Positions 1 through 24,130 are shown, numbered from the stretch's first letter. The stretch: DNA of 64,000 nt from Candidatus Moraniibacteriota bacterium (GCA_035390125.1 DAOOTD010000001.1:241936-305935), one strand, 5' to 3'. Program-made: numbers and translations. The notes: a model not told the origin generated them from the sequence alone.

Positions 1-983
1 TCAATTAATATATGCTCGCCAAGATTTGCCTCTTCAAGTACTAATGCAGCACCTATACCAGCTAATGCATAAGCATTCATTCTTTGATGATCGTTGGCAC
101 TATGAGTAATTGGAACAAGAATTGCAGGTTTTGCATTTGCAGCAATTTCAGTAATAGATGTGGCCCCAGCTCTGCTTATAATCAAATCGCTTGCAGCAAA
201 AGCATCTCTGAGCTGGTTTGCATTCATGAAAGGAACAGCATAATATCCTTCACGTCCAGACTTTATTCCCAGGTATGCAGCCTCTTCAATAACCTCATTA
301 AAATGTTCTTGGCCAGTTTGATGAATAACCTGATAATAAGGTAAAATTTTCGGAAGAATTTTTATTATAAAATTATTAATAGTTTGAGAACCCTGACTTC
401 CTCCTAATACTAATATTGTTTTTTTTGACTCAGTAAATCCAAGTTTTTTTCTTAATATTAAAGGATCGCCTTCGGTAACTTCAAAACGTATTGGATTTCC
501 AATTAATGCAGTTTTTTCTTTTGGAAAATATTCTTCAGCAGAAGGATAAGCTACTGCTATACGATCAGCAAACTTAGACAGAAATTGATTTGCTATTCCA
601 GGAATACTGTCTGATTCATGAATCATTATTGGTATCCGGTATATCCAAGCAGCTATCACTATAGGTACTGCTACATATCCTCCTTTGGAAAAAATAACAT
701 CAGGAGTAAACCACAGTAAAATCCATAATGACTGGAAAAATCCTATGGGCAGCTTAAAAAAGTCTAAAATATTTTTTAATGAAAAATAGCGACGCATTTT
801 TCCGCTTAAAACAAATTTTGCCGGAATATTTTTTTCCGACATTATTTCCTTCTCCATTTGAGCACCTGATCCTACATATAAAATTTCAAGATCAGGACCA
901 ATCTTTTTTCTAAGCTCATCTATTACTGCAATTAGAGGCGTAAGATGACCACCCGTTCCACCTCCTGTTAATAATACACGCAT
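1..983 (-). CDS. murG: UDP-GlcNAc:undecaprenyl-PP-MurNAc-pentapeptide GlcNAc transferase MurG (C-terminus runs off window start)
   Basis: The reverse translation from the ATG at 983 reads MRVLLTGGGTGGHLTPLIAVIDEL, the MurG G-loop. The frame stays open to position 1. Confidence 0.8.
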   Translation of the reverse strand, partial: MRVLLTGGGTGGHLTPLIAVIDELRKKIGPDLEILYVGSGAQMEKEIMSEKNIPAKFVLSGKMRRYFSLKNILDFFKLPIGFFQSLWILLWFTPDVIFSKGGYVAVPIVIAAWIYRIPIMIHESDSIPGIANQFLSKFADRIAVAYPSAEEYFPKEKTALIGNPIRFEVTEGDPLILRKKLGFTESKKTILVLGGSQGSQTINNFIIKILPKILPYYQVIHQTGQEHFNEVIEEAAYLGIKSGREGYYAVPFMNANQLRDAFAASDLIISRAGATSITEIAANAKPAILVPITHSANDHQRMNAYALAGIGAALVLEEANLGEHILI

Positions 984-1095
984 AAATTTTTATAAATCAT
1001 TTATTTTTTATATTTTTAGACTTTGCTTATAAAAAGCATCGTTATTAATTATATTATAGCAATATGATGCTAAAAAATCTACTTCTTTAATTAGT

Positions 1096-2286
1096 TTACT
1101 TGCAGTTAATATTCAAATGTTTTGAAATGTTAAGCAAAATTCCTACGGCTGACATTAAAAAAATAAGTGATGTTCCGCCATAACTTACAAATGGAAGAGG
1201 AACGCCTGTGAGTGGAACCAACGCTATATTAGCACTTATGTTAATGAAAGCCTGAAAAGCTATCCACATTATTACGCCTGTTGCCAATAATCTTCCAAAC
1301 ATGTCTGGCGAATTCTTTGCGATTTTTATGCCACGTAAAGCTAGCAAAACTATCAAAACAACAAGGGTTACGGCTCCGATAATTCCTAATTCTTCTCCTA
1401 TTATGGCAAAAATTGAATCACCTACTGGTTCTGGTAAATAGTTAAATTTTTGCCGGCTATGGCCTAAGCCGACTCCCAAAAGACCTCCCGATCCTATAGC
1501 TAATAAAGCTTGATTGATTTGATATCCAATTCCTTGCGGATCAAAACCTCTGTCAAGAAAAGTTGCTATACGATTGAAACGATAAGGTTCAATTTTAACA
1601 AGTATCCAAAGCAAAAAAAATCCTAGTATGCCCATTGAAAAAATATGCTTCAGGCTAGCTCCAGATATAAAAAAAATTGAAATAGAGGTAAGTAAAATTA
1701 CACCTAAAGTTCCTATATCTGGCTGCTTTATAATTAAAAATCCTATAAATGCCATAATTCCTAAAAAAGGCAGAAATCCTTCAAGAAAATCTTTTATTCT
1801 GTGAACTCCTCTGCTTTCAAGCCAGGCAGCTAAGTAGATTATTATGGAAAGTTTTGCCATTTCTGAAGGTTGAAATGAAAATGAACCAAGCTGAATCCAG
1901 CGACTGGCACCATATATTTTTGTTCCAATCCCAGGAACAAAAACCAAAATAAGAAATACTAATGAAATAAAAAATAAAGGCACGGAAACTTTTTTCCAAA
2001 AATGATAATCTATCTTAGAAAAAGTATATAGGGCTATAATTCCAGGAATAACACCAAAAAATAACTGGTGTTTAAAAAAATAATATTCGTCAGCAAAACG
2101 CGTTTCGGAATAAATAACTCCTGCACTGGCAATCATAACCAGCCCGAAAGCCAGCAGGATGAGCACAACGGTAAGCAATGTTTTATCTACTGACTTTTCA
2201 TACATAATTTTTGTTTTGAATTTTTCTTTCTCCATTTTTCTATTTCCTTGTGATTTCCGGATAATAAAATTTTTGGCACTTTCCAC
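1096..2286 (-). CDS. ftsW: SEDS-family peptidoglycan polymerase / lipid II flippase (FtsW/RodA)
   Basis: About 10 TM segments and a conserved SEDS C-terminal block (YLPEPVGDSIFAIIGEELGIIG). The gene lies beside murG. The 5' end overlaps trmD, so the real start is probably the internal Met near 2205-2235. Confidence 0.75.
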   Translation of the reverse strand: MESAKNFIIRKSQGNRKMEKEKFKTKIMYEKSVDKTLLTVVLILLAFGLVMIASAGVIYSETRFADEYYFFKHQLFFGVIPGIIALYTFSKIDYHFWKKVSVPLFFISLVFLILVFVPGIGTKIYGASRWIQLGSFSFQPSEMAKLSIIIYLAAWLESRGVHRIKDFLEGFLPFLGIMAFIGFLIIKQPDIGTLGVILLTSISIFFISGASLKHIFSMGILGFFLLWILVKIEPYRFNRIATFLDRGFDPQGIGYQINQALLAIGSGGLLGVGLGHSRQKFNYLPEPVGDSIFAIIGEELGIIGAVTLVVLIVLLALRGIKIAKNSPDMFGRLLATGVIMWIAFQAFINISANIALVPLTGVPLPFVSYGGTSLIFLMSAVGILLNISKHLNINCK

Positions 2287-2864
2287 TTATTAAAAATTTC
2301 TGGTTTTGTATATTGTGGAAATTCAAGATAGCCTTCTTTTGAATGTGATTCTATTTTTGTGCTTTCGTTGTTGCCTAGAACCCCAGGAATTATCCTAGAA
2401 ACGGAATCTGCTACAATCATAGCTGGGATTTCGCCGCCAGTCAGAACGTAATCTCCTATAGAAATTTCTTCATCGGCAATATATTTAGCTACCCTTTCAT
2501 CAACTCCTTCATATCTTCCACAAATAAAAATAAGTTGATCGTATTTTGAAAGCCTTTTAGCATCTTTTTGTGTATATTTTTTACCCTTAGCGGAAAATAA
2601 AACAATCCTTACTTTTAACTTTCGACTCCTGATTTTTGATTTTAAAGATTGAACACATTTATATATTGATTCAATCTTAAGCACCATTCCGGCTCCTCCG
2701 CCATAAGGCGTATCATCCACAGTTTTGCGTTTGTCAGTCGTATAGTCACGTAAATTATGAATGTTAATATCTATTAAGCCATTTTTCCGCGCACGCTTGA
2801 GGATTGACTCATTGAAATACGAATCAAAAATCCTAGGGAAAATTGTGATAATATCAAATTGCAT
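2187..2864 (-). CDS. trmD: tRNA (guanine37-N1)-methyltransferase
   Basis: MQFDIITIFP... and DDTPYGGGAGMVLK, the SPOUT TrmD signature. Confidence 0.85.
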   Translation of the reverse strand: MQFDIITIFPRIFDSYFNESILKRARKNGLIDINIHNLRDYTTDKRKTVDDTPYGGGAGMVLKIESIYKCVQSLKSKIRSRKLKVRIVLFSAKGKKYTQKDAKRLSKYDQLIFICGRYEGVDERVAKYIADEEISIGDYVLTGGEIPAMIVADSVSRIIPGVLGNNESTKIESHSKEGYLEFPQYTKPEIFNKWKVPKILLSGNHKEIEKWRKKNSKQKLCMKSQ

Positions 2865-2999
2865 ATGATTTCCTTTTTAGCTTAACTATGGCCATTTTAT
2901 CATATTTTTGGGAAAACAAAAACCCCAGTTACAGTTGCTAAATATTTTTTTTTATATTATCCTTATTTCAGATAATTAATTATTAAAAAAATAAATTAT

Positions 3000-3431
3000 A
3001 TGACAGGAAACATATTTTCATCCTTAGAAAAAGGGTCTCGATTACCAGAGGAACCGTTAAATCTTCATGGTGATAAAAATGGAAAAGAACAAGAACCTTT
3101 AACAAAAGAATTTCATGTGTGTGATTCAATGAGAACACAATTACTAGAAGAAATTGAACAAGCTATTAGACTTCTTAGTAACTTTGATCCAGACTACAGT
3201 CCAGAGGAATTAAAAGGAATAACAGAAAAATATCATTTGATACCAAGAAACAACATTGATGTTGTACTTGGGGAATTAAAAAATATGAAAAAAAAGTTCG
3301 AAGATAATACTTTTTACATGAACTCTTTAAGGAATATGAATTTTAAACTAGTATTATCTGAACGGGAACCCAAAGAAGCTGATAAATATTTGATGGATGG
3401 TTTAATATCAGGAGCTGCTCAGAAACACTAA
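3000..3431 (+). CDS. hypothetical protein (143 aa), lone plus-strand gene
   Basis: Clean ORF ending 25 nt before a strong bidirectional terminator. No recognisable motif. Confidence 0.4.
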   Translation: MTGNIFSSLEKGSRLPEEPLNLHGDKNGKEQEPLTKEFHVCDSMRTQLLEEIEQAIRLLSNFDPDYSPEELKGITEKYHLIPRNNIDVVLGELKNMKKKFEDNTFYMNSLRNMNFKLVLSEREPKEADKYLMDGLISGAAQKH

Positions 3432-5435: not shown

Positions 5436-5800
5436 AAAATTTATCAAGGCATCTCATAAGCCGGATTCTGTCAAGGATAATCATTTATCTATTTCCGATA
5501 TTGCTATTGGAAATTAAGCGACACTTCCAGTACTTCCTAGGGGAGTGCTAGATACGGTCTTGCATCCGGGTAAGGTTTTAGCCGTTTCACCTCTTATATT
5601 ACTATAAGAACTTACCCTATTTTTTCAATAGGATAATTTAATTCTTTCGAATTAAATCGTCTCTGCTCGCACCTCTAAAATTACTTTCGACGGGAGTTAC
5701 CCGCTACCCCGCTACCTGTCATTTATAAGTGACAGGTGAATGTCCGGACTTTCCTCTCTAATAAAAAATTAGAGCGATTATCTCAATGCCTTGATAAATT
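5436..5800 (-). ncRNA. rnpB: RNase P RNA (bacterial type A-like)
   Basis: The minus strand carries GAGAGGAAAGUCCGGAC (P4 5' strand) and GACAGAAUCCGGCUUAU (P4 3' strand). It also has a GGUGCGAGCAGAGACG J11/12-like block and AAGAGGUGAAACGGC. A 15-bp terminal P1 pairs AAUUUAUCAAGGCAU (5800-5786) with 5436-5452. A P3-like hairpin CUCUAAU-UUUUU-AUUAGAG is present. Confidence 0.8.
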
Positions 5801-14917: not shown

Positions 14918-15988
14918 TTAAGCTTCCCTATTTTCTAAATATTCCACTAATCCTGTCAGAAAATTTTTAGCTTCAGGAAAAAAAGCCATCTTTTTTATTT
15001 CCCTTTTTCCTTTTGCCAAATAGCCTGCTGACATTTCTTGAGCATATTCAAGCGCCCCTGTATTTTTCAAGATGTCCTGAAAAACCATAACTTCTTTACT
15101 GGTTATACCCTTTTTGCCTAAAATAAAGTCCAACTGCTTTTTTTGCCTGATATTTAACCACTTATAAGCCCTGATAACCATGATAGATTTTTTTCCTTCT
15201 TCTATATCTGATACGGATAATTTACCTGTTTTTTTCTTATTTCCAAAAACTCCCAGAATGTCATCCTGAATCTGAAAAGCAATTCCTACATTAATGGCAT
15301 ATCGACTCAAACACTGCATTAATTTCTTATTATTTTTGCCAGCTAATATTACACCCATACATAAGGGATTTTCAAAAGTATAGCGAGCTGTTTTATTGGC
15401 ATACATAGCTAAAACTTCTTTTTCGGTAGCTTTTTTCCCCTGTGCAATTTTAACATCCTGTGATTGCCCAACTATTGTAGTTTCTACTATTTTCTGCATT
15501 TTTATCAAAGATTGTAATGTTGTCTTAATGTCAAATCCAGCTTCTAAAATTATTTTGTTGGCCATTGCATAAAGCATGTCACCGGCAATAATGGCGATTG
15601 AATTTCCAAAATGCTGTGCTTCTTCTGCGGGCATATTTTTTTGCTTTTTGCCAGCAAAGAAAGTTTGCAAAGTTTTTTCTCCGTGCCGCAATAGTCCCTT
15701 ATCCATGATATCGTCATGGACAAGAAAAAACATGTGCAATAATTCTGCAGCTGCAGCAGTTTTTATTATTCTTTTCTTATTTTTACCGCCTGCCCCAAAA
15801 TAAGCCTGGCACAAAAGCGCTCCGCGGATTCTCTTTCCTCCGGCTAAAGTTATTTTTTTAATTTGTTCTAGGGCTTCAGCGATAAGCACATCCTCTTTCC
15901 GCACATTTTTAATAAGACCATTAAATTGAAGTTTTAATTCATCGTCTATTTCTTTTTTCAGTTTTATTAAAGTTTCTTTAAAGTTCAT
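14918..15988 (-). CDS. trans-polyprenyl diphosphate synthase (FPP/GGPP/longer chain)
   Basis: Two aspartate-rich motifs: FFLVHDDIMD and FQIQDDILGVFG. Confidence 0.8.
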   Translation of the reverse strand: MNFKETLIKLKKEIDDELKLQFNGLIKNVRKEDVLIAEALEQIKKITLAGGKRIRGALLCQAYFGAGGKNKKRIIKTAAAAELLHMFFLVHDDIMDKGLLRHGEKTLQTFFAGKKQKNMPAEEAQHFGNSIAIIAGDMLYAMANKIILEAGFDIKTTLQSLIKMQKIVETTIVGQSQDVKIAQGKKATEKEVLAMYANKTARYTFENPLCMGVILAGKNNKKLMQCLSRYAINVGIAFQIQDDILGVFGNKKKTGKLSVSDIEEGKKSIMVIRAYKWLNIRQKKQLDFILGKKGITSKEVMVFQDILKNTGALEYAQEMSAGYLAKGKREIKKMAFFPEAKNFLTGLVEYLENREA

Positions 15989-16112
15989 AAAACTTTTTTA
16001 TTTTCACTTTCCTATTATCCCAATTATCGAAAAGCAAGTCAATAATAAATAAAAAAGCAGGAATTAAATCTATTCAGATAACCCTGCTCTTTTTCATGGT
16101 ATAATGCATTTT

Positions 16113-16670
16113 TTAATGCTTGTATTTACTGGGCGTTTCTGATGAAATGTGAGCCATTTCCTCAGACCTTTCTCCTTCCGACCCAACTATTTCAATAATT
16201 GCAAATGATCCACCCGACAAGGCTTTCTCTATCTGGCATTTAGCACAATCGCATTCTGCGCCCCCATTTTCTGCCATCTTGAAAATTCTGAAACCACTTC
16301 TGAGAATAATTTTAGTCCCTTTTTCCCAGAATCCGGTTCTTGTCCTGAATGAATTCCAGAGAATTGACTTTACCAAAATAACCGTCTCCATCTTTGTTTC
16401 TATTTCTTTTATCCTTGCTTTTAACCTCCATGAATCTCCTTGATAATTTTCAAGAGATTTTAAAATTTTCTCCGCTTCATCTGAAATTTTTGTCATGTAA
16501 GTTAATAAAGCCTTTTCATAATCACTTAATATTCCAAGCTGGACATCCCCCTCTTCTGGATGAAATTTAACATCTACGAAATCTCCACTTTTAAGTATTT
16601 TAAAAACTTCTAAGAGAAAATTTCCTTCTAAAGCCTTAGCTATTATTCCTTTTTTATTATCTCCTTTCAA
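16113..16670 (-). CDS. hypothetical protein (185 aa) with C-terminal CxC...CxxC cluster; first gene of GC-richer island
   Basis: ORF reading ...AENGGAECDCAKCQ.... No family recognised. Confidence 0.4.
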   Translation of the reverse strand: MKGDNKKGIIAKALEGNFLLEVFKILKSGDFVDVKFHPEEGDVQLGILSDYEKALLTYMTKISDEAEKILKSLENYQGDSWRLKARIKEIETKMETVILVKSILWNSFRTRTGFWEKGTKIILRSGFRIFKMAENGGAECDCAKCQIEKALSGGSFAIIEIVGSEGERSEEMAHISSETPSKYKH

Positions 16671-16798
16671 AGTACACCTCCTTTATATCTTGTATATTTA
16701 GGTTTTTAACCCAATCTTCTGATTATACATAAAACACAAAAAAAGTCAACCACCGACTAGTATTATTATAATTTTCTTTATATAGTCAAATAAAAAAT

Positions 16799-17398
16799 TT
16801 AGTGCTTATTTTTTATGTGTCCCTTAGTCGGCCCATCAAGCATAATTTTAAAATCTGCTGAAGTATAAGCACACCCTGGTTTTGGCCATTCATCATAATC
16901 AGCACAGCAGTCTTCGTCCATGTGATTCTTATTTTTTCTTGAGCTCCATCCCGGCTTGTCTTTTTCAGCGGGACAATGGGTACCTTTTTTAATATAATCT
17001 GACCTATTATTTTTGGGAGCAGAATTTATTGATTGATGATTGGCATTTTGGGATAATTTTCTTGCAGAATTTTCTTTTTCAATAGCCTCTCTTAATTCTA
17101 TGATTCTATCCGGTTTTTTATTAAACAGTATCTTATCATCACTTTTATGTATAATATTATACTTCTTTGGATTATTGCCATATGTTATATAAGGAACAGA
17201 ATACATATTTACTGTTTCATTTTTTACTGTTTTTTCTCCAATAATAACCTCCTGAAAATATTTCTCGGCCTGATTTAATGTCGTCACTGTTTTGACGCCT
17301 TCAATAAAATTTTCCTCAGCGAATGAAACATCAGACACTAAAAATCCTGCAAAAACACATGAAGTAATCAAAGAATATCTGAAAATACCATTTCGCAT
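16799..17398 (-). CDS. secreted hypothetical protein with Cys-rich C-terminus
   Basis: Signal-peptide-like N-terminus (MRNGIFRYSLITSCVFAGFLVSDVSFA) and a C-terminal cysteine cluster (...HCPAEKDKPGW...DEDCCADYDEWPKPGCAY). Confidence 0.45.
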   Translation of the reverse strand: MRNGIFRYSLITSCVFAGFLVSDVSFAEENFIEGVKTVTTLNQAEKYFQEVIIGEKTVKNETVNMYSVPYITYGNNPKKYNIIHKSDDKILFNKKPDRIIELREAIEKENSARKLSQNANHQSINSAPKNNRSDYIKKGTHCPAEKDKPGWSSRKNKNHMDEDCCADYDEWPKPGCAYTSADFKIMLDGPTKGHIKNKH

Positions 17399-17477
17399 AT
17401 ATTGTAATAGATATGATTATTTTTATATTCTCCTAAAATATACATTATAATACATATTTGGCAATAAATTATTTTAA

Positions 17478-17503
17478 TAAGATAAAGCCCTATTGATTGC
17501 TCA
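17478..17503 (-). terminator. rho-independent terminator after the repeat-protein gene
   Basis: Perfect 11-bp stem AGCCCTATTGA / TCAATAGGGCT with loop TTGC, followed by a T-rich stretch on the minus strand. Confidence 0.6.
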
Positions 17504-17557
17504 ATAGGGCTCATGTTCTGATTTACAGAAAGTTTTCTTTTGTACATTTGCGGCTTA

Positions 17558-18817
17558 TTACTGTTGTACATTTATATTTTTGTAGCAGACTAATGCTATC
17601 ATTCTGAATTCGCTATTCAGATCTTTGTGGAATTTTTTAATTATTTCAGGAGGAATATTTTTCATGATTGATGGCATTATTTCACGGCAATGAGCCAGCA
17701 CCATGCCTTTGAAATCTTCCGGACAATCATTAAAACGATCACTTAACTCATCAATGGATATAATCGTCTTTAAAACATTACTGTATTGGTTTCCGATAAG
17801 CCCATTGAATGTTTCGTCACAATTGTCAAATAAATCTTGAAGTTTTTTCAGTGATGTTTCTTTTTTGATCAACTGGAGAGCATAATGAGCATACAATGGC
17901 ACAAAATGTTCTTCACATTCTTCATGAAGATTATCCAGCTGTTCAAAGGACTCGATTTTACTCAACAATTTGTCGTATGGATCAAAATAGAAATCTTCGA
18001 ATTCTTCCGGACAGTCATTGAAATGTCTTTCGAGATCTTCAATTGATTCAACCGTATATAATAATTTCTGATACGGCCCCTGGAAAAGATCATTGAAAGC
18101 ATCAGGACAATTTCCACGTCGTTCTTCAAGTTCTTCAAACGAAGTGATAGCATCCAAAAGTTCTCCGTAGCGCTGCTTGATAAGTTCATCGAATTGATCC
18201 TGGCCAAGACAATTTCCGTATTTCTCTTCCAGCTCTTCAAGAGAAGCTTCTTTCAGAAATTGCGGAAAAAGTTCCTTATACCTAGAAGTAATGGCTTCGT
18301 CAAATTCTTCAGGACAATTTTCATATCTATCTTCCAGTTCTTCCAAAGAAACTTCTTTCAAAAGTCGTCCATAAAATTCTTTAATAAGTTCATTAAATCT
18401 ACCTGGATTAAGACCATTTCCAAACTCGTCTTCCAGCTCTTCCAGAGAGGCTTCTTGTAGAAATCGGGGGAAAAGGTCTTCATATCGAGCAATAATGATA
18501 TCCTGAAAATTATCAAAATTCATGCTGTTGGCCTCTTTCACCTGTTCAATATCATTGATAACTGAAAGAAGTTCTTTTAGGCGAACACCGATAAGAAACT
18601 TAAATTGCTGGGGACATTTATCGTTTTGCCGACTAAGTTCTTCAAGATCCTGAATGTTAGCCAGAATATCCTTGAACCCATATTCTGATATTGGCTCATT
18701 TGATTTGGATGATGAAATCGGATTTTTTGTAATCGTTTTTGAGATTGGTTCATCAACAAAAAGATTCTCCCACCAGTTGTCCAGCCGCTCCAATAATCTT
18801 ATTAATGCTTTTAACAT
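17558..18817 (-). CDS. acidic tandem-repeat protein (about 10 repeats of 32-35 aa, each with one conserved Cys)
   Basis: Repeat consensus roughly S-[LI]-EELE-[DE]-x-[FY]-x-[ND]-C-P-[ED]-[ED]-F-x3-[IL]-x2-[RQ]-Y-x-[EK]-L-[FL]-P-x-F-L-K-EA. Examples: NCPEEF, NCPDAF, DCPEEF, NCDETF, DCPEDF, KCPQQF. Confidence 0.6.
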   Translation of the reverse strand: MLKALIRLLERLDNWWENLFVDEPISKTITKNPISSSKSNEPISEYGFKDILANIQDLEELSRQNDKCPQQFKFLIGVRLKELLSVINDIEQVKEANSMNFDNFQDIIIARYEDLFPRFLQEASLEELEDEFGNGLNPGRFNELIKEFYGRLLKEVSLEELEDRYENCPEEFDEAITSRYKELFPQFLKEASLEELEEKYGNCLGQDQFDELIKQRYGELLDAITSFEELEERRGNCPDAFNDLFQGPYQKLLYTVESIEDLERHFNDCPEEFEDFYFDPYDKLLSKIESFEQLDNLHEECEEHFVPLYAHYALQLIKKETSLKKLQDLFDNCDETFNGLIGNQYSNVLKTIISIDELSDRFNDCPEDFKGMVLAHCREIMPSIMKNIPPEIIKKFHKDLNSEFRMIALVCYKNINVQQ

Positions 18818-18953
18818 ATCTATATCCTGCCTCCTTTAAATGGTTTATTTTTTAGCTTGTAAAATAACTTTTGAACAATTTACTGTATCAAATTATTATT
18901 TATTTGTCAATTGTCCATAAATTGTTCATATATAACGTATCTAAATAAAGAAA

Positions 18954-18985
18954 AAGGGTCCTGTAGTTTTCTACAAGACCCTGCC
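18954..18985 (-). terminator. terminator after hypothetical gene 19013-19672
   Basis: GGGTCCTGTAG-ttttc-CTACAAGACCC with one mismatch. The minus strand follows with TTTTTCTTTATTT. Confidence 0.5.
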
Positions 18986-19012
18986 TAATAATTTTTAGTT
19001 TACTTGAATTCC

Positions 19013-19672
19013 CTATGCCGACACTTCTTCAAACACTGCCTTGGTGTGTTCAGCGTTAGCGAATTTAGCATAAAAAAGACGAACATTCACGGTGCCTTTG
19101 GTCAGACTGAGTAAGGTTTTCGCCACCTTACCCAAATCAATCTTGTGCCGATTTACCATATTTCCGGCTACGCGCAGGAATTGATTTCCTATAATATCTT
19201 TCATGCTCTCGTACTTTTTGCAATCCTCATGGTTTATAAGGACAATAAGCTTAATCGAGTCATGTTTACTTAAAAACAGACTGATTATATCACTTACTAC
19301 CTTAAACTCTTTGGGGAAAGTTTCGCGTTCGGAAAATGAAGCGGCCGCACCAGGTATGACTACCGGAATATATTGTCCTGATGCCAATCCCAATTCATTG
19401 TGGATAAATTGATCAAAGGCGTTTTGGAAACGCGGATCATTACAATGAATTACGATTGCTTCCGGATGACTTATGTTTAAGTCATATTCCTTGACCACTG
19501 ACTGCATTTGTTCTTCATTCCTACCCTTACCGGACAAATTTGAATCACCATTGATTCCGCTTTCTAATGCTTTATTGTTTGCCTGTTGCCGGTTATTTTC
19601 TTTCCTATCGGGGAAAGGTATTGGCTTTTTTTCTAATGAGATACCACTTTTCCCTTTTTGATTTTTATCCAT
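19013..19672 (-). CDS. hypothetical protein (219 aa), third gene of the NfeD-flotillin operon
   Basis: Low-complexity N-terminus, then a conserved-looking core ...AIVIHCNDPRF...YIPVVIPGAAASF.... No family recognised. Confidence 0.45.
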   Translation of the reverse strand: MDKNQKGKSGISLEKKPIPFPDRKENNRQQANNKALESGINGDSNLSGKGRNEEQMQSVVKEYDLNISHPEAIVIHCNDPRFQNAFDQFIHNELGLASGQYIPVVIPGAAASFSERETFPKEFKVVSDIISLFLSKHDSIKLIVLINHEDCKKYESMKDIIGNQFLRVAGNMVNRHKIDLGKVAKTLLSLTKGTVNVRLFYAKFANAEHTKAVFEEVSA

Positions 19673-19767
19673 TTAACCCTCCTATTTCTTGATAGTAAAG
19701 TGCACGGGAACAGATTCGCCCCCGTGCACAAATTTCATCATCACGCCCTATCGAGCGTTATGATTTT

Positions 19768-21360
19768 TCACTTTTTTTCTTCAGATCCTGCATTTTTGTC
19801 GGCAACCATTGATAATGCTTCACCAATGTTTACGCCGGCTTTTTTGAACAGATCTTCCAGGTCAATACCTTGGGTTTTCAAAATTCTGACAACATTGGCT
19901 ACTGTCTGAGGAACTATGCTTCCCATGGTCTGAAGACCTTCACCTTTTCCGCCCATATCAACGATTTTGATGTTGTCGATGCTGCCAAAAGGTAAGGCCA
20001 CGCTCTTGAAAATCGATTCTCCGACTTTGGCCAGTGCTTCTCCACCTTTGTCTACCAGGGCCGGCAAGCGGTCGAGGATAATAATCAGACGCGAGGCATC
20101 ATTCATTTGAGCCAATGCTTCAGCCATGGCCTTGGTACCAGTAGCTTCAGCGGTAAGTTTCTTTTCCACCTTGGCCGCTTCGCCTTCCGCCGATGCCATC
20201 AAAGTAGCTCTGATCTTATTGGCTTCACCTTCGCCTTCCATTGTTTGTGAAACCTTATCAGCTTCAGCTTTGATTTGAACTTTTTTGGACTCGCCTTCCG
20301 CTTCCGTAATTGTGGCTTGCTTATTTGCATCAGCGTCAATAAGTTTTTTCTTCTTGGCTGCTTCGGCCGGCATAACAACGGTGGCTTCGAGTTCTTTCCC
20401 TACCCTTATAACTTCTTTTTCCTGCACATGCGTCTGGGCTTCTTTTTCTGCCGCATCACGTTCAGCTTCCTTGACTTTGAGAACTTTTGACTGATCAGCC
20501 AATTCAATATTTTTTGCCATCTCTGCTTTGGCATTTGCAGTTTCAGTAATGACTTTCATATCGGCAATTTTTACATCGCGGTTCTTATTTGCTTCCGCGA
20601 CCTTGGCTGCATTTTCAGCAGTAACTATCGACGCATCACGTTCGGCATCAGAGACTTTAATTGTTGATTCTCTTTGCGCCTCAGCAACTTTAATGTCTGC
20701 ATCACGTTTAGCTTCGGCCACTGTCTGTTTGCCCAGCGAATCAATGTATCCGTACTGGTCATTGATATCCTGGATAACCAAAGTGATGATGCGCACGCCA
20801 AGAAGCTTTAATTCGGCGCCGGATTCTTCCAGAACTTTCTTATTGAATTCGTCACGCCGTCTCAGTAATTCCTGGATATCCAGTTTACCGATAATTGACC
20901 GCAAATGACCTTTCAGGATGTTTTGGATAAATTTGTTGATTTCTTCTTCAGATTTTCCCAGAAATGCTTGTGCAGCATTGACCAAGTCTTCGAACTCAGT
21001 CGATAACTTGCAGGTTGCCACACCTCTGACTTCAACTTTTACGTTATCTTTATTGGGAATAGATGATTCGTTTATTTCCACCTGAAAGGCGGATGTCGAC
21101 ATTTCCTGGTAATTTTCTACGAATGGGATTTGTACCTTGCCGCCGCCACATACTACCTTAAATCCGAGTGAATATTTTTTGTTTTCAGGAGCGGGACCGG
21201 TATATGTATATTGTCTTCCATAAAAAACACCGACTGCATTTGGCGGAATTTTTTTGTATCTGCTTGCGATGTACTTAAGAGCAAGTATGATACCCACAAC
21301 AACCAACAAAATCATGCCCGGAACAAACGCCTTACTTACAATACTTGATAAAATTTCCAT
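19768..21360 (-). CDS. floT: flotillin-like SPFH/band-7 protein (FloT/YuaG family)
   Basis: N-terminal TM hairpin, an SPFH domain, a long Ala/Glu-rich repeat coiled-coil (AEAKRDADIKVAEAQRE...) and the flotillin C-terminus. Confidence 0.8.
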   Translation of the reverse strand: MEILSSIVSKAFVPGMILLVVVGIILALKYIASRYKKIPPNAVGVFYGRQYTYTGPAPENKKYSLGFKVVCGGGKVQIPFVENYQEMSTSAFQVEINESSIPNKDNVKVEVRGVATCKLSTEFEDLVNAAQAFLGKSEEEINKFIQNILKGHLRSIIGKLDIQELLRRRDEFNKKVLEESGAELKLLGVRIITLVIQDINDQYGYIDSLGKQTVAEAKRDADIKVAEAQRESTIKVSDAERDASIVTAENAAKVAEANKNRDVKIADMKVITETANAKAEMAKNIELADQSKVLKVKEAERDAAEKEAQTHVQEKEVIRVGKELEATVVMPAEAAKKKKLIDADANKQATITEAEGESKKVQIKAEADKVSQTMEGEGEANKIRATLMASAEGEAAKVEKKLTAEATGTKAMAEALAQMNDASRLIIILDRLPALVDKGGEALAKVGESIFKSVALPFGSIDNIKIVDMGGKGEGLQTMGSIVPQTVANVVRILKTQGIDLEDLFKKAGVNIGEALSMVADKNAGSEEKK

Positions 21361-21412
21361 GAATTCTTTCCTCTCTTTCGTTTGATTTTATAATTTGGGT
21401 TTATGCTACTTA

Positions 21413-21934
21413 TTATACAGTTTTCACTGTAAGTTTTCCGCCAACAACCTTTTCAACGATAACTGTTTTGTCTTTATCTATCGGTTTACCGTCATTGGAA
21501 CAGGCCATAAACGTACAGTAACGTCCATTCATGGTCATTCCTACTTCTCCGATGGCGCCTTGATCAATAGGCGTAACAACCGTAGCTGTTAATCCTACCG
21601 CGTCAGAAGTATTAACTACCGATGAGCCTTGCTGTTTGTAAATTGCTTTATAAACAAGCCACATTACGATAGCAAAAAAAACTCCTGAGCTTGCGCCGAC
21701 AAAAGATGCATTTGGATACGACAAATCATAGTAACGAGCTACCGCACCTGCGGCACCAAAGGTCATTATGAATGTCGATATCACCTTCATGGAAAAAATA
21801 CTGACCGTTGATTCGCCACTTCCGCCGGCATCATGACTTACGTCATGATCATGATCCATATCATGGTCACCGAAAATGTGGGATCCAATGGTAAGTAATA
21901 ATCCTGACAACGCAATTGCAACAAAAATCAACAT
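21413..21934 (-). CDS. nfeD: NfeD-like membrane protein, short form (YuaF-like), flotillin partner
   Basis: Two N-terminal TM helices and a C-terminal OB-fold-like beta domain. An AAAGGAGGG RBS precedes the internal ATG at 21934. The tracked ORF start at 22084 is probably too long. Confidence 0.65.
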   Translation of the reverse strand: MLIFVAIALSGLLLTIGSHIFGDHDMDHDHDVSHDAGGSGESTVSIFSMKVISTFIMTFGAAGAVARYYDLSYPNASFVGASSGVFFAIVMWLVYKAIYKQQGSSVVNTSDAVGLTATVVTPIDQGAIGEVGMTMNGRYCTFMACSNDGKPIDKDKTVIVEKVVGGKLTVKTV

Positions 21935-22095
21935 AAAAAACCCTCCTTTCTTTTTCTCTTTATTCGTTGTATTTTGTTTGTAAAAATTTAATTGTAAAAC
22001 AACGCTATTGCAAAAATTATTGCAACCTTCTTGTATAGCAGATAAATATAATTTTGTCAAGTGGTGAAAGTATTTTATTATCATTTTCTTTGCAA

Positions 22096-22137
22096 TAAAA
22101 AATAAGGCTCAAGCAAGCCTTATTTTTATCGCGTACA
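22096..22137. repeat. direct repeat copy 1 (hairpin AATAAGGCT-CAAGCA-AGCCTTATT plus ATCGCGTAC)
   Basis: About 40 nt are identical to 22628-22669. Confidence 0.7.
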
Positions 22138-22263
22138 CTTCGCACTCACTGGTTGGAACCAAATCATGAGAGAATTGGTTAAATGGGATAAACTTAAGAA
22201 AGGTATCAACCCTTTTATTATTGAAGATTTATTAAAGGCTAGAGAAATAAATAAGGCAAGGGG

Positions 22264-22524
22264 TTAGCCTTGCCTTGTGGAAGATTTGTCTTTTTCCCTC
22301 TCTGCATTCATTTTATTTGCTCTCACATGAAGAGCCTCCGCTGGAGTAATTTTTTGTTTAGCAAATATGTTTATTATTTTGGTTGCAGCTTTCGCGGCGG
22401 AGAATGATTTGGCCGCTTCTTTATAAACAAAACTGCCGTCTTCTTCTTTTTTGAAATTCTTCTTTTGATCGTCGGGAACTTTTTCGAAAGAATCAAATTG
22501 CTTCGGTTTAAACATTTCAGACAT
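22264..22524 (-). CDS. small basic hypothetical protein (86 aa)
   Basis: ORF bracketed by the two direct-repeat copies. Its own hairpin AAGGCAAGG...CCTTGCCTT overlaps the stop codon. Confidence 0.4.
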   Translation of the reverse strand: MSEMFKPKQFDSFEKVPDDQKKNFKKEEDGSFVYKEAAKSFSAAKAATKIINIFAKQKITPAEALHVRANKMNAEREKDKSSTRQG

Positions 22525-22627
22525 ATTTTTTGATTATTTAATATTTATATCTTTATTCTAACACCTAACAACAAACGCGCAAGATTATAAAAAATATAAA
22601 TTGGTTCCAACTACTCCCCTAAGGTAT

Positions 22628-22669
22628 AAAAAAATAAGGCTCAAGCAAGCCTTATTTTTATCGCGTACC
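22628..22669. repeat. direct repeat copy 2; also the terminator immediately 3' of tRNA-Glu
   Basis: Same about 40 nt as 22096-22137. The repeat overlaps the last 3 nt of the tRNA. Confidence 0.7.
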
Positions 22670-22737
22670 ACCACGGGGAATCGAACCCCGGTTACCAGGA
22701 TGAGAACCTGGCGTCCTAGCCGCTAGACGATGGTGGC
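22666..22737 (-). tRNA. tRNA-Glu (anticodon CUC)
   Basis: Minus strand reads GCCACCATCGTCTAGCGGCTAGGACGCCAGGTTCTCATCCTGGTAACCGGGGTTCGATTCCCCGTGGTGGTA. Manual cloverleaf fold with G1-U72. CCA is not encoded. Confidence 0.75.
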
Positions 22738-22834: not shown

Positions 22835-24130
22835 CTACAGCCTTACAAATGGTTTCTTTTTCCATTCCTTGTTCTGTCTACAAAGAAGTTTTTTGGCTTG
22901 AGTAGGATCAGCTATTATCTTTTCAACTATTTTCTCCATCCTCATCCCTTGCGAACCTTTAACTAGGACAAAGTCTCCTTCTTTTATAAACTGGGATATT
23001 TTTTCGGCAGCTTTTTCCGGATCATCAAACCGCAAAATATTTTGCTCAGGAAATCCTAGCGTAATCAATTGGCCGACTGTGTGCTGCATTCTATTACCAA
23101 CAGCTATAAAAGCATCTATGTTTTCTGAAAATATTTTTTTGCCAACTTCCTTATGGCCTGATTCTGTTTGATCACCAAGTTCTAACATATCCCCAAGAAC
23201 AGCTATTTTTCTTTTGGCTCTAAGCTGGCCAAGAACTCCCAGCGCCGCAATTGTAGAAATGGGTGAAGCGTTATACGTATCATCAATTATGTAGCTGCCT
23301 TTTATGCCTGGAAGAAGATTGAGCCTACCTAAAGGAGCACGAAAAGATTCTATAGCCTGTGCAATATCAACTAAATTCATTTTAAATATTATTCCGACAC
23401 TCACTGCTGCTAAAGCCGGATATACATAATGTGATGCTAAAAGATTTTTAAGGCGGATAGGAATGTTTTTACCGTCATAATTGAGCTTGAAGCTTATGCC
23501 TTCAGGACTCTCGTTTTCATAATTATAAATCAGATTAGATCCATTGACAGTGGCGTTTTCATTTAAACCATACGTTAGAACATGTGCCTTGGTTCGATTG
23601 GCCATTTCCATAACAAGTTCTTCATCGGTATTTAAAATTGCATATCCATCAGGGTTTAATGATTCAATAAGTATTCTTTTTTCTTTAGCAATGTTTTCAA
23701 CTGTATTAAAAAACTCAATATGGCTCAAAGAAACGTTTGTAACAACTCCTACCATAGGATGTATGAATGACATGAAATATTTCATGTCATCTGGGCGATC
23801 GACTCCGAGTTCAAACACTAAAATTTCCGGATAAAATGGAAACACCAATATGAAAATCCATTTAAAAAATACCCATATCCATTTGAAAATATTTTTATTG
23901 CCGCTTTCGGCTCCAATAATTGTTAATGGAATTCCAATTTCATTATTATAATTTTTCTGATTTTCACGTACATTATATCTATAGGAAAGCACCGTAAAAA
24001 TAGCTTCTCTAGAAGAAGTTTTTCCAACTGATCCAGTAATAGCCACAATTTTAGGCTTATGACGCTTAAGAACGGCAATAGCCATGAGACGCAGTATTTT
24101 TTCTAAAAATATTAGCTTCTTTGACTTCAT
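22835..24130 (-). CDS. murF: UDP-MurNAc-tripeptide--D-Ala-D-Ala ligase MurF (with a hydrophobic insertion)
   Basis: Mur ligase P-loop AITGSVGKTS; MurF-specific NNEIGIPLT and DDTYNASP. An unusual roughly 45-aa hydrophobic insert (WIWVFFKWIFILVFPFYPEILVF) is present. Confidence 0.7.
   Translation of the reverse strand: MKSKKLIFLEKILRLMAIAVLKRHKPKIVAITGSVGKTSSREAIFTVLSYRYNVRENQKNYNNEIGIPLTIIGAESGNKNIFKWIWVFFKWIFILVFPFYPEILVFELGVDRPDDMKYFMSFIHPMVGVVTNVSLSHIEFFNTVENIAKEKRILIESLNPDGYAILNTDEELVMEMANRTKAHVLTYGLNENATVNGSNLIYNYENESPEGISFKLNYDGKNIPIRLKNLLASHYVYPALAAVSVGIIFKMNLVDIAQAIESFRAPLGRLNLLPGIKGSYIIDDTYNASPISTIAALGVLGQLRAKRKIAVLGDMLELGDQTESGHKEVGKKIFSENIDAFIAVGNRMQHTVGQLITLGFPEQNILRFDDPEKAAEKISQFIKEGDFVLVKGSQGMRMEKIVEKIIADPTQAKKLLCRQNKEWKKKPFVRL

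Follow-up and report, generated by a model that had tools for sequence, protein, structure and literature searches.

A tRNA-Glu-ispA junction in a Candidatus Moraniibacteriota genome carrying an NfeD-flotillin operon with a carbonic-anhydrase-like third gene

Do the seven genes between tRNA-Glu and a polyprenyl synthase gene in a Candidatus Moraniibacteriota genome form one acquired island? The window analysed here is a 64,000-nucleotide stretch of that genome (GCA_035390125.1, DAOOTD010000001.1:241936-305935); coordinates are counted from its first letter, and all genes of the window described below are on the minus strand. A sequence-only reading had proposed that a GC-richer block of about 6 kb was acquired horizontally beside the tRNA and that its left half is a candidate envelope or defence-type module. 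All seven minus-strand ORFs that it listed (g86, nfeD, floT, g219, g419, g199 and g185, in order from the tRNA) are present between tRNA-Glu (anticodon CTC; 22665-22737; ARAGORN and Rfam), the 3' end of which faces the variable region, and the ispA-like polyprenyl synthase gene (14918-15988; Pfam E 4e-53), the conserved right-hand anchor of the junction. The end coordinate given for the block, 22140, excludes the 86-aa gene (22264-22524) of its own list. We think it likely that the tRNA-Glu(CTC)-ispA stretch is a hot spot of gene gain, a mosaic of independent units rather than one island, to which this lineage has added the g86 unit, the nfeD-floT-g219 trio, g419 and g185. Only the trio still looks compositionally foreign, and it would be a cassette transferred as a whole between lineages, in which the third gene encodes a predicted carbonic-anhydrase-like partner of flotillin.

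Base composition and the nfeD-floT-g219 operon

The region 19.0-22.0 kb is the GC maximum of the 64 kb. GC in its 1-kb windows is 0.406, 0.452 and 0.391 and peaks at 0.482 over 500 nt, while the window as a whole averages 0.341 (sd of the 1-kb values 0.029); the region is richer as claimed, but the 45-50% estimated by eye was somewhat too high. The most deviant 3-kb tetranucleotide window is 19001-22000 (z 4.5). GC3 exceeds the prediction from host codon usage by 0.144 in floT (z 4.3) and by 0.13 in g219 (z 3.9), whereas the largest excess in 39 host genes is 0.071. The GC3 excess of g86 has a z of 2.5, and that of g185 and g199 is about zero. The segment 16.1-18.8 kb, which had been counted in the GC-richer block, has ordinary host composition (1-kb GC 0.337, 0.302 and 0.350; 500-nt GC 0.27-0.38; tetranucleotide z 0.19), and neither composition nor codon usage is atypical in g185, g199 or g419. 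By GC, tetranucleotides and GC3 the anomaly is confined to 19.0-22.06 kb (GC 0.39-0.48).

This GC-rich core is one operon of 3.05 kb with its own promoter, ribosome-binding sites and terminator. Its leader/promoter region (21935-22062) contains TTGACA...TATACA followed by an AAGGAGG ribosome-binding site. This site and the orthologue starts place the start of nfeD (21413-21934) at 21934, which shortens the product from the 223 aa first read to 173 aa. The gap between nfeD and floT (19768-21360; 530 aa) is 52 bp. Between floT and g219 (19013-19672; 219 aa) lies a GC-rich hairpin without a clear T tract (19700-19729), which may be an mRNA stabiliser or an attenuator, and an intrinsic terminator composed of a 12-bp stem and a T tract (18955-18982) closes the operon. 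The closest trio copy, in contig L010 (FloT 77% identical), shares 72% DNA identity over 22062-19862 and 19494-19026 by blastn. This homology starts at 22062, so that the leader/promoter region is conserved, and ends at 19026; it sets the limits of the cassette.

The nfeD product is a short NfeD with three predicted transmembrane segments followed by a C-terminal NfeD OB-type domain, encoded directly upstream of floT on the same strand. Pfam NfeD (PF01957) was matched by all eight trio NfeDs with a best E of 1.2e-7, the window copy scoring 19.3 bits against a cut-off of 29.1, and the trio NfeD profile matches the solved domain of YuaF (PDB 2k14; E 3.3e-4). FloT has the architecture of a flotillin-type SPFH protein: it matches Pfam Band_7 over the cut-off (E 1.1e-24) and the Flot domain weakly (E 1e-3), and flotillin-2 and flotillin-1 are its nearest relatives of solved structure (E 1.5e-39). 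It aligns with the NCBIfam FloT model over the full length of that model, at 242 bits, far below the equivalog cut-off of 700. The order of short NfeD, flotillin-type SPFH protein and third gene is that of B. subtilis yuaF(nfeD2)-floT-yuaI and of SPFH-NfeD operons; the module recognised earlier is indeed present, with a third gene unrelated to yuaI. This gene encodes a predicted zinc protein of the beta-carbonic-anhydrase fold, whereas yuaI encodes an acetyltransferase. The trio may also differ from other SPFH-NfeD operons in a conserved His/Asp-rich loop after TM1 of NfeD, GDHDMDHDHDVSHD, the conservation of which was judged within the trio NfeD alignment.

Spread of the trio and its origin

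Sequences at least 39% identical to g219 lie just downstream of NfeD-flotillin genes in 8 of 8 independent contexts (the window, L004, L005, L006, L008/L009, L010, L012 and L014), the flanks of which are all different. Gene order and strand are kept in all eight despite these unrelated flanks and 39-76% divergence, and the pattern of pairwise identity is common to the three proteins. Some carriers are Patescibacteria-type contigs (L005 and the low-GC L004, L010 and L014); the trio also occurs in unrelated higher-GC genomes. In L010 it has a GC of 0.518 (floT GC3 0.655) versus 0.384 in its flanks and adjoins the 3' end of a tRNA, and it is more GC-anomalous in its host than the window trio is in its own. 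Unrelated flanks in all eight contexts, together with a closest copy that is more GC-anomalous and also adjacent to a tRNA, therefore support horizontal acquisition for the trio only. The earlier claim of horizontal acquisition beside the tRNA is supported for the trio, by composition, absence from the junction in close relatives, patchy unrelated contexts and the stronger anomaly in its closest copy, and is not supported for the rest of the block. As to direction and mechanism of transfer, we infer gain by this lineage at the tRNA. SPFH operons are patchily distributed, and horizontal spread has been proposed for them (PMC13086221).

An alternative is that the trio is ancestral and vertically inherited, that its GC reflects an Ala/Glu-rich flotillin and codon-usage selection, and that the relatives have lost it. 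Gene loss is common in genomes of the Candidate Phyla Radiation (Patescibacteria), and the presence of the trio in several Patescibacteria-type contigs agrees with this explanation. In five other hosts the GC of the trio exceeds that of the flanks by only 0.5-3 points, which weakens the case for a foreign origin. The GC of floT expected from amino-acid composition is 0.385 and that observed is 0.436, so about half of its raw excess comes from the Ala/Glu-rich sequence. However, none of the 39 host genes reaches the GC3 excess of floT and g219 (z about 4), and floT of L010 has its high GC3 although its host has a GC of 0.38. Each genome carries the trio in a different context, and three independent relatives lack it at the orthologous junction. 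Moreover, copies from non-streamlined genomes with 52-55% GC share 58-59% identity with FloT, whereas the identity of IspA between Moranbacteria-like relatives is only 43%. Vertical descent of the trio is therefore unlikely, and we favour its transfer as a cassette.

The carbonic-anhydrase-like third gene

The product of g219, listed earlier as a 219-aa unknown, can be assigned: it has the alpha/beta fold of beta-carbonic anhydrases and is predicted to be a zinc protein. A disordered N-terminal extension of about 60 aa precedes a core of about 150 aa that carries C77-x-D79-x-R81 and H148-x-x-C151. These would be the Cys, His and Cys zinc ligands and the Asp-Arg dyad (CxDxR ... HxxC). Across 29-30 sequences, C77, D79, R81, H148 and C151 do not vary, and the C, D, H and C of the site are also invariant in distant family members. 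The five residues pair with C42, D44, R46, H98 and C101 of E. coli Can in an hhalign comparison that has a weak score.

Pfam Pro_CA (PF00484) was not matched, Pro_CA_2 (PF20393) was matched at 25.5 bits, below its cut-off of 30, NCBIfam gave no match, and no solved structure in the PDB was matched at the sequence level. The one PADLOC match was a weak, stray one to a methyltransferase model (E 1.6e-4). Identity to beta-carbonic-anhydrase relatives (Cab 1g5c, COS hydrolase 3vrk, CS2 hydrolase 3ten, CsoSCA and LCIB) is only 9-18%. The protein differs from them also in its smaller core, in the clade-specific motifs PKEFK and YAKFA, and in its strict linkage to NfeD-flotillin. Our reading of the literature turned up no report that connects flotillin or NfeD with a protein resembling carbonic anhydrase. 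The third gene encodes a previously undescribed predicted zinc carbonic-anhydrase-like protein, and the trio is a new variant among the known SPFH-NfeD operons.

It may be asked whether g219 is instead a stand-alone, housekeeping-type gene that neighbours the flotillin operon by chance, with no functional coupling. In 3 of 3 cases, distant family members (31-34% identity) lie away from flotillin, and the fold is therefore independent of flotillin; the hairpin between floT and g219, and the other gene that is inserted at this position in L012, are likewise compatible with separate units. Against this, the order and strand of the trio persist through all eight contexts, and divergence co-varies across the three proteins. 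PKEFK and YAKFA are specific to those flotillin-linked sequences that were examined; relatives without the linkage have not retained them. The single terminator stands after g219, and none with a T tract stands before it. A chance neighbour is thus improbable, and we take the g219 protein as a candidate partner of flotillin.

How the three proteins may work together can be outlined as follows. Flotillin would be anchored by its N-terminal hydrophobic segment, and its oligomers would form an SPFH dome or ring at the membrane, on the cytoplasmic side. NfeD, the short form encoded here, would bind flotillin through its C-terminal OB-type domain and aid its assembly. The g219 protein would be a soluble enzyme of the beta-carbonic-anhydrase fold with a Cys-His-Cys/Asp-Arg zinc site, associated with the flotillin scaffold as a dedicated client or partner. 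Its probable reaction at such a membrane microdomain is the interconversion of CO2 with bicarbonate and a proton, or else the hydrolysis of a similar small compound, for example COS; we infer this activity, as well as the physical association of the three proteins. FloA and NfeD act jointly on client proteins (PMC11222466). Islands of streamlined genomes already offer one case of a client gene dedicated to flotillin, in the flotillin-associated rhodopsin (FAR) clusters of SAR11, HIMB59 and Pseudothioglobus (bioRxiv 10.1101/2023.01.04.522823). In these clusters, too, flotillin is tightly and consistently linked to one client gene, in a variable region or island and in distant taxa. The FAR client, however, is a membrane rhodopsin paralogue whereas the g219 product is a soluble beta-carbonic-anhydrase-like protein, and the partners and sizes differ.

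The tRNA-Glu-ispA junction and its other units

The junction in relatives shows which genes were added. In L098 and L099 (GC 0.36; MurF 79-80% and IspA 71% identical to those of the window), MurF is followed by tRNA-Glu(CTC), then after about 100 bp by a g199 homologue and after a further 85 bp by ispA, and the junction holds nothing more. A 9.7-kb contig has a matching order (MraZ, RsmH, PBP, MurF, g199 homologue, IspA, UppS), and in the more distant relative L019 tRNA-Glu(CTC) lies about 330 bp from ispA. DNA homology with L098 breaks off exactly at the tRNA-Glu 3' end (window 22665); it reappears at 16975-16808 and again at 16056. Since a close relative has MurF, tRNA-Glu, a g199 homologue and ispA, g199 (16799-17398) is resident. 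The search for an empty junction, proposed with the sequence-only reading, thus gave a divided answer: the trio, g86, g419 and g185 are missing in the relatives, and g199 is present. Because g199 lies within the block, the extra DNA forms two separate blocks, one of 5.27 kb (g86 unit, trio and g419) and one of 0.74 kb (g185; 16057-16798). The basal state of the junction would be MurF, tRNA-Glu, (g199), ispA.

Some hallmarks of tRNA-linked islands are found here. Insertion is at the tRNA-Glu 3' end, close relatives lack the DNA at this site, and composition is atypical, the latter for 19.0-22.06 kb only. A perfect 40-nt direct repeat, with two copies in the window and none expected by chance, is att-like and may be comparable to the repeats around att-flanked, cis-mobilisable remnants without an integrase. 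Copy A (22629-22668) spans the final nucleotides of tRNA-Glu and the tRNA hairpin terminator, and copy B (22097-22136) lies 35 bp upstream of the start of the trio cassette; both are also present in the independent assembly L003. Unlike in tRNA-linked islands, however, the repeat takes in just 3-4 nt of the tRNA itself, and the two copies enclose only a 532-bp unit, leaving the trio outside. A search for further copies, degenerate ones included, found none at the far end of either the trio or the block. The interval 16.1-22.7 kb contains no integrase, transposase or other mobility gene, and the seven proteins gave no match to recombinase families of Pfam, NCBIfam, PHROGs and PADLOC. The sole gene in the 532-bp unit, g86, encodes an 86-aa basic protein without a family match (Pfam, NCBIfam, PADLOC, PHROG) or a viral relative. 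It has its own terminator (22253-22276) and is bracketed by 16-nt imperfect inverted repeats at 22152-22167 and 22596-22611.

Acquisition of the whole 6-7 kb from g185 to g86 as one island with a left-half envelope or defence module is very unlikely: all seven genes do lie between the tRNA and a housekeeping gene, and six of the seven are missing from close relatives at this site, but the compositional anomaly covers just 3 kb, resident g199 at the L098/L099 junction separates the extra DNA into two blocks, the block comprises at least four units each with its own promoter and terminator, the whole lacks flanking repeats, no PADLOC or meaningful PHROG match supports such a module, and in the closest trio relative the place downstream is taken not by g419 but by a gene for a CCA-adding enzyme. 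We thus prefer to read the stretch as a mosaic of independent units.

The suggested module in the left half also finds no counterpart, as g185, g199 and g419 occur together in no relative examined. PADLOC gave no match other than the stray one of g219, and PHROG gave no meaningful match. An anti-phage defence system was considered and is not supported, as no component otherwise matched a known defence family and no association of g185, g199 and g419 is conserved in the relatives.

Each of the three genes has its own features. The g185 gene (16113-16670; TTG start with a ribosome-binding site; promoter-like site at 16722-16749) encodes a lineage-specific protein with a CxCxxC motif and without a family match in Pfam, NCBIfam or PADLOC; its 90% cluster has three members from one organism type. 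The secreted g199 protein, of host-like composition, has an invariant Cys-rich C-terminal domain, HMDEDCC-x-D-x-DEWPKPGC. The acidic, all-alpha g419 protein (17558-18817) is an orphan of the alpha-solenoid type, built from about 10 repeats that are each 32-35 aa long (S-[LFI]-E-E-L-E-x2-[YF]-x-N-C-P-E-x-F...Y-x2-L-L); a promoter-like site (18882-18910) and a terminator (17485-17512) belong to its gene alone.

Gene order of the locus

The window belongs to a metagenome-assembled genome of Candidatus Moranbacteria (Patescibacteria), in which the proteins of the locus are deposited as P5548_02455 to 02485 (MAG TPA). Identical contigs are present in JGI, ENA and Logan assemblies, and the source metagenomes are JGI 3300025715, ERZ795055 and SRR4244739. 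All genes of interest lie on the minus strand and are transcribed in the order MurF (22835-24130), tRNA-Glu(CTC) (22665-22737), g86 (22264-22524), nfeD (21413-21934), floT (19768-21360), g219 (19013-19672), g419 (17558-18817), g199 (16799-17398), g185 (16113-16670), ispA (14918-15988), uppS, trx and trxB, where the g numbers give protein lengths in amino acids.

The ATG of nfeD at 21934 is preceded by a strong ribosome-binding site and orthologues begin at the same point; therefore the protein has 173 amino acids. An AGGAGG site stands ahead of the g219 ATG at 19672, and a terminator with a 12-bp stem follows g219 at 18955-18982. With a promoter-like site (TTGACA-17-TACAGT), a ribosome-binding site and a terminator, g419 forms a unit of its own; g86 likewise has a separate terminator, and g185 has a promoter match of 11/12. 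Some assemblies annotate a gene of 59 or 67 aa at 17368-17571. This 67-aa ORF runs across the hairpin of the g419 terminator (17485-17512) and for that reason is unlikely to be real.

The nfeD-floT-g219 cassette in other contigs

Close homologues of g219 are few, and a search of 5.8 billion proteins found 29 of them. All readable contexts with a g219 homologue of at least 39% identity were compared, namely the window and seven others (L004, L005, which is a Patescibacteria MAG, L006, L008/L009, L010, L012 and L014). In all eight, genes for NfeD (about 175 aa), a flotillin (about 545 aa) and the g219 homologue lie in this order on one strand, while the flanks differ in every case and the host GC ranges from 0.37 to 0.64. 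Pairwise identities follow one pattern across the three proteins. None of g86, g419, g199 and g185 travels with the trio in any other context seen. The sole break of the trio was found in L012 (5905-7713, host GC 0.64), where a heparinase II/III-like gene stands between the flotillin and the CA-like gene. In distant members of the g219 family (31-34% identity), flotillin was not adjacent in three of three cases.

The closest copy of the trio is that of L010, with protein identities to the window of 76, 64 and 65%. DNA identity of 72% extends over window positions 22062-19862 and 19494-19026, which defines the limits of the cassette. The L010 trio (281-3171) has a GC of 0.518 and a floT GC3 of 0.655, and its flanks have a GC of 0.384. 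It lies about 250 bp past the 3' end of a tRNA gene (L010 1-28) other than that of the window, and looks like a fresher acquisition of the cassette. The most divergent trio (39-50% identity) is that of L004 (CAYGDX010000001.1), the only species-representative genome with a FloT relative, where the locus GC is 0.37 and the neighbouring PBP is 26% identical to that of the window; 'uncultured Gammaproteobacteria' is its database label only. A FloT scan of genome contigs returned one locus, at 49% identity. A plasmid search (tblastn) with g219 gave no match, and viral contigs scanned with g219 (profile), g419, g86 and g185 held no relatives.

The CA-like protein as a candidate flotillin client

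The g219 product is a zinc-site protein of the beta-carbonic-anhydrase fold. In a weakly scoring profile alignment with E. coli Can, five residues (C77, D79, R81, H148 and C151) pair with the zinc ligands and the Asp-Arg dyad of Can. The zinc residues are retained throughout the wider family, which comprises 774 cluster representatives in a profile search, 63 of them with E at or below 1e-30. The PKEFK and YAKFA motifs are confined to flotillin-linked sequences among those examined. Searched against the PDB at the sequence level, the g219 profile gave chance matches only. Members of the family bear no annotation but 'hypothetical protein', and a fold and a probable active site are now assigned to them.

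FloT carries a Band_7/SPFH domain (E 1e-24) and spans the whole NCBIfam FloT model, under the equivalog cut-off. Among solved structures, eukaryotic flotillin-2 and flotillin-1 come nearest, both deposited as large oligomeric assemblies. All eight trio NfeDs match PF01957, and their profile matches the solved YuaF domain; a weak Bac_rhodopsin match in one of the eight orthologues (E 0.0015-0.0023) was regarded as transmembrane-segment noise. In all eight, TM1 is followed by a loop rich in His and Asp, GDHDMDHDHDVSHD or a variant of it, at residues ~22-40 of the window NfeD (alignment A3). The loop suggests metal binding, which would be notable beside a zinc enzyme.

Flotillins and the NfeD proteins that partner them occur widely in bacteria, but their clients and purpose are poorly defined. 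In membrane microdomains, client proteins are acted on by flotillin and NfeD together (PMC11222466), and in streamlined genomes a flotillin gene can be tied, within an island, to a single client gene dedicated to it (bioRxiv 10.1101/2023.01.04.522823). Strictly linked and co-inherited, and open to interpretation as an enzyme, the third gene of the cassette provides a testable candidate for the client of one flotillin subtype. The present analysis established the gene content, fold, motif conservation, strict linkage and co-divergence of the cassette. The CA-like protein is probably linked in function with flotillin and NfeD: a soluble beta-CA-like zinc enzyme would be the dedicated partner of the flotillin/NfeD scaffold and may act on the cytoplasmic side of the membrane. 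CO2/bicarbonate interconversion would be its likeliest activity; true carbonic anhydrase activity is somewhat less likely than not. More speculative, and on balance rather unlikely, is the wider idea that the flotillin-linked CA-like clade constitutes a previously unrecognised three-component microdomain system of an NfeD with a possibly metal-binding loop, a flotillin and a CA-like enzyme. In such a system the SPFH scaffold would confine to the membrane, or regulate there, an enzyme that converts between CO2 and bicarbonate plus a proton, or senses CO2, and the system would spread horizontally, ultra-small Patescibacteria included. In the literature searched we found no paper linking flotillin/NfeD with a carbonic anhydrase and no mention of PF20393. 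The conserved NfeD-flotillin-beta-CA-like cassette is new; the operon type itself is already known.

Probable gene gain downstream of tRNA-Glu

The sequence-only reading had described a GC-rich island of about 6 kb at 16113-22140, suggested to be horizontally acquired, with a candidate envelope or defence-type module in its left half. The mean GC of the window is 0.341 (1-kb s.d. 0.029). It is raised only at 19.0-22.0 kb (1-kb windows 0.406, 0.452 and 0.391); over 500 nt it peaks inside floT at 0.482, the highest value in the 64 kb. The left half, for which 38-43% had been claimed, has the same GC as the flanks (0.337, 0.302 and 0.350). Tetranucleotide distances agree: among 3-kb windows, 19001-22000 deviates most (z 4.5), and 16001-19000 is unremarkable (z 0.19). 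Codon usage in 39 host genes served to separate amino-acid from codon effects on GC. Amino-acid composition alone predicts a GC of 0.385 for FloT, whereas 0.436 was observed. The GC3 excess was +0.144 for floT (z 4.3), +0.13 for g219 (z 3.9), +0.07 for nfeD (z 2.0), +0.08 for g86 (z 2.5), +0.055 for g419 (z 1.6) and about zero for g185 and g199; the maximum over the 39 host genes was +0.071. Thus, the anomaly is real but covers 3 kb, not 6 kb.

An empty ispA-tRNA-Glu junction in relatives had been put forward as a check on acquisition. An IspA scan of metagenomes gave only relatives at 45% identity or less. Two contigs of truly close relatives (L098 and L099) were reached via g199 homologues, and their MurF and IspA are 79-80% and 71% identical to those of the window. 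In both, MurF and tRNA-Glu(CTC) are followed after about 100 bp by a g199 homologue and, 85 bp further on, by ispA. A third contig has the same MurF-g199 homologue-ispA order plus the entire upstream dcw cluster, and in L019, a more distant relative, tRNA-Glu(CTC) lies about 330 bp from ispA without g199. The junction is free of the trio in all of them. DNA homology of the window to L098 reaches the exact 3' end of the tRNA (22665). Two further stretches follow, one in the region encoding the g199 C-terminus (16975-16808) and one that starts at 16056 and enters ispA. These breakpoints therefore define two extra blocks in the window: 17399-22664 (5.27 kb), which holds the g86 unit, the trio and g419, and 16057-16798 (0.74 kb), which holds g185. 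The g199 gene is a resident of the junction. Because it stands between two separate extra blocks, a single island is ruled out. Acquisition is supported for the trio only, by its composition, its absence at the relatives' junction and its varied contexts. An island in itself is nothing out of the ordinary; what this locus cleanly illustrates, for the Candidate Phyla Radiation (Patescibacteria), is the stepwise gain of genes immediately downstream of a tRNA gene.

No integrase or transposase was recognised in the block. A perfect 40-nt direct repeat, composed of the 3' nucleotides of tRNA-Glu and its terminator hairpin, occurs at 22629-22668 and at 22097-22136 (copy B, 35 bp from the 5' limit of the cassette). 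It is not an assembly artefact, since both copies are found in an independent assembly. The 532-bp unit that the copies bracket contains g86 alone, and imperfect 16-nt inverted repeats lie just inside them (22152-22167 and 22596-22611). The g86 unit resembles a remnant flanked by att sites, or a very small element mobilisable in cis. When the distal ends of the block were searched for att-like copies of the 3' end of tRNA-Glu, only the known 40-nt copy came up, and the repeat had no match in viral contigs. In L019, a tandem duplication (778-868 and 869-959) just upstream of ispA comprises the last 17 nt of tRNA-Glu(CTC) and 74 nt of its flank. Together with the 40-nt repeat, this duplication makes the tRNA-Glu 3' flank look recombination-prone across the lineage.

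The supposed envelope or defence module found no backing: no meaningful match came from scanning all the unknown proteins with PADLOC and PHROGs, and g419, g199, g185 and g86 match no defence or phage families. Family searches gave zero matches for g185 and g86 and no known family for g199, and no specific structural relative of g419 was found. The g419 protein, which has only two homologues, is acidic (D+E 88 versus K+R 46) and consists of about ten repeats of 32-35 aa; a model predicts an all-alpha solenoid of two-helix repeats (pLDDT 85). The g199 protein has a signal-peptide-like N-terminus, and N-terminal parts vary within its small family of secreted proteins, which numbers 12 in the search. 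Its Cys-rich C-terminal domain of about 60 aa carries a near-invariant NHMDEDCCxDYDEWPKPGCAY...MLxGPTxGH, of which HMDEDCC...DEWPKPGC is invariant, and 11 proteins share it (alignment A4). A gene of this family lies between tRNA-Glu and ispA in all three contexts examined.

Elsewhere in the window, and unrelated to the cassette, a bacterial class A RNase P RNA is encoded on the minus strand at 5441-5793 (Rfam, 122.5 bits).
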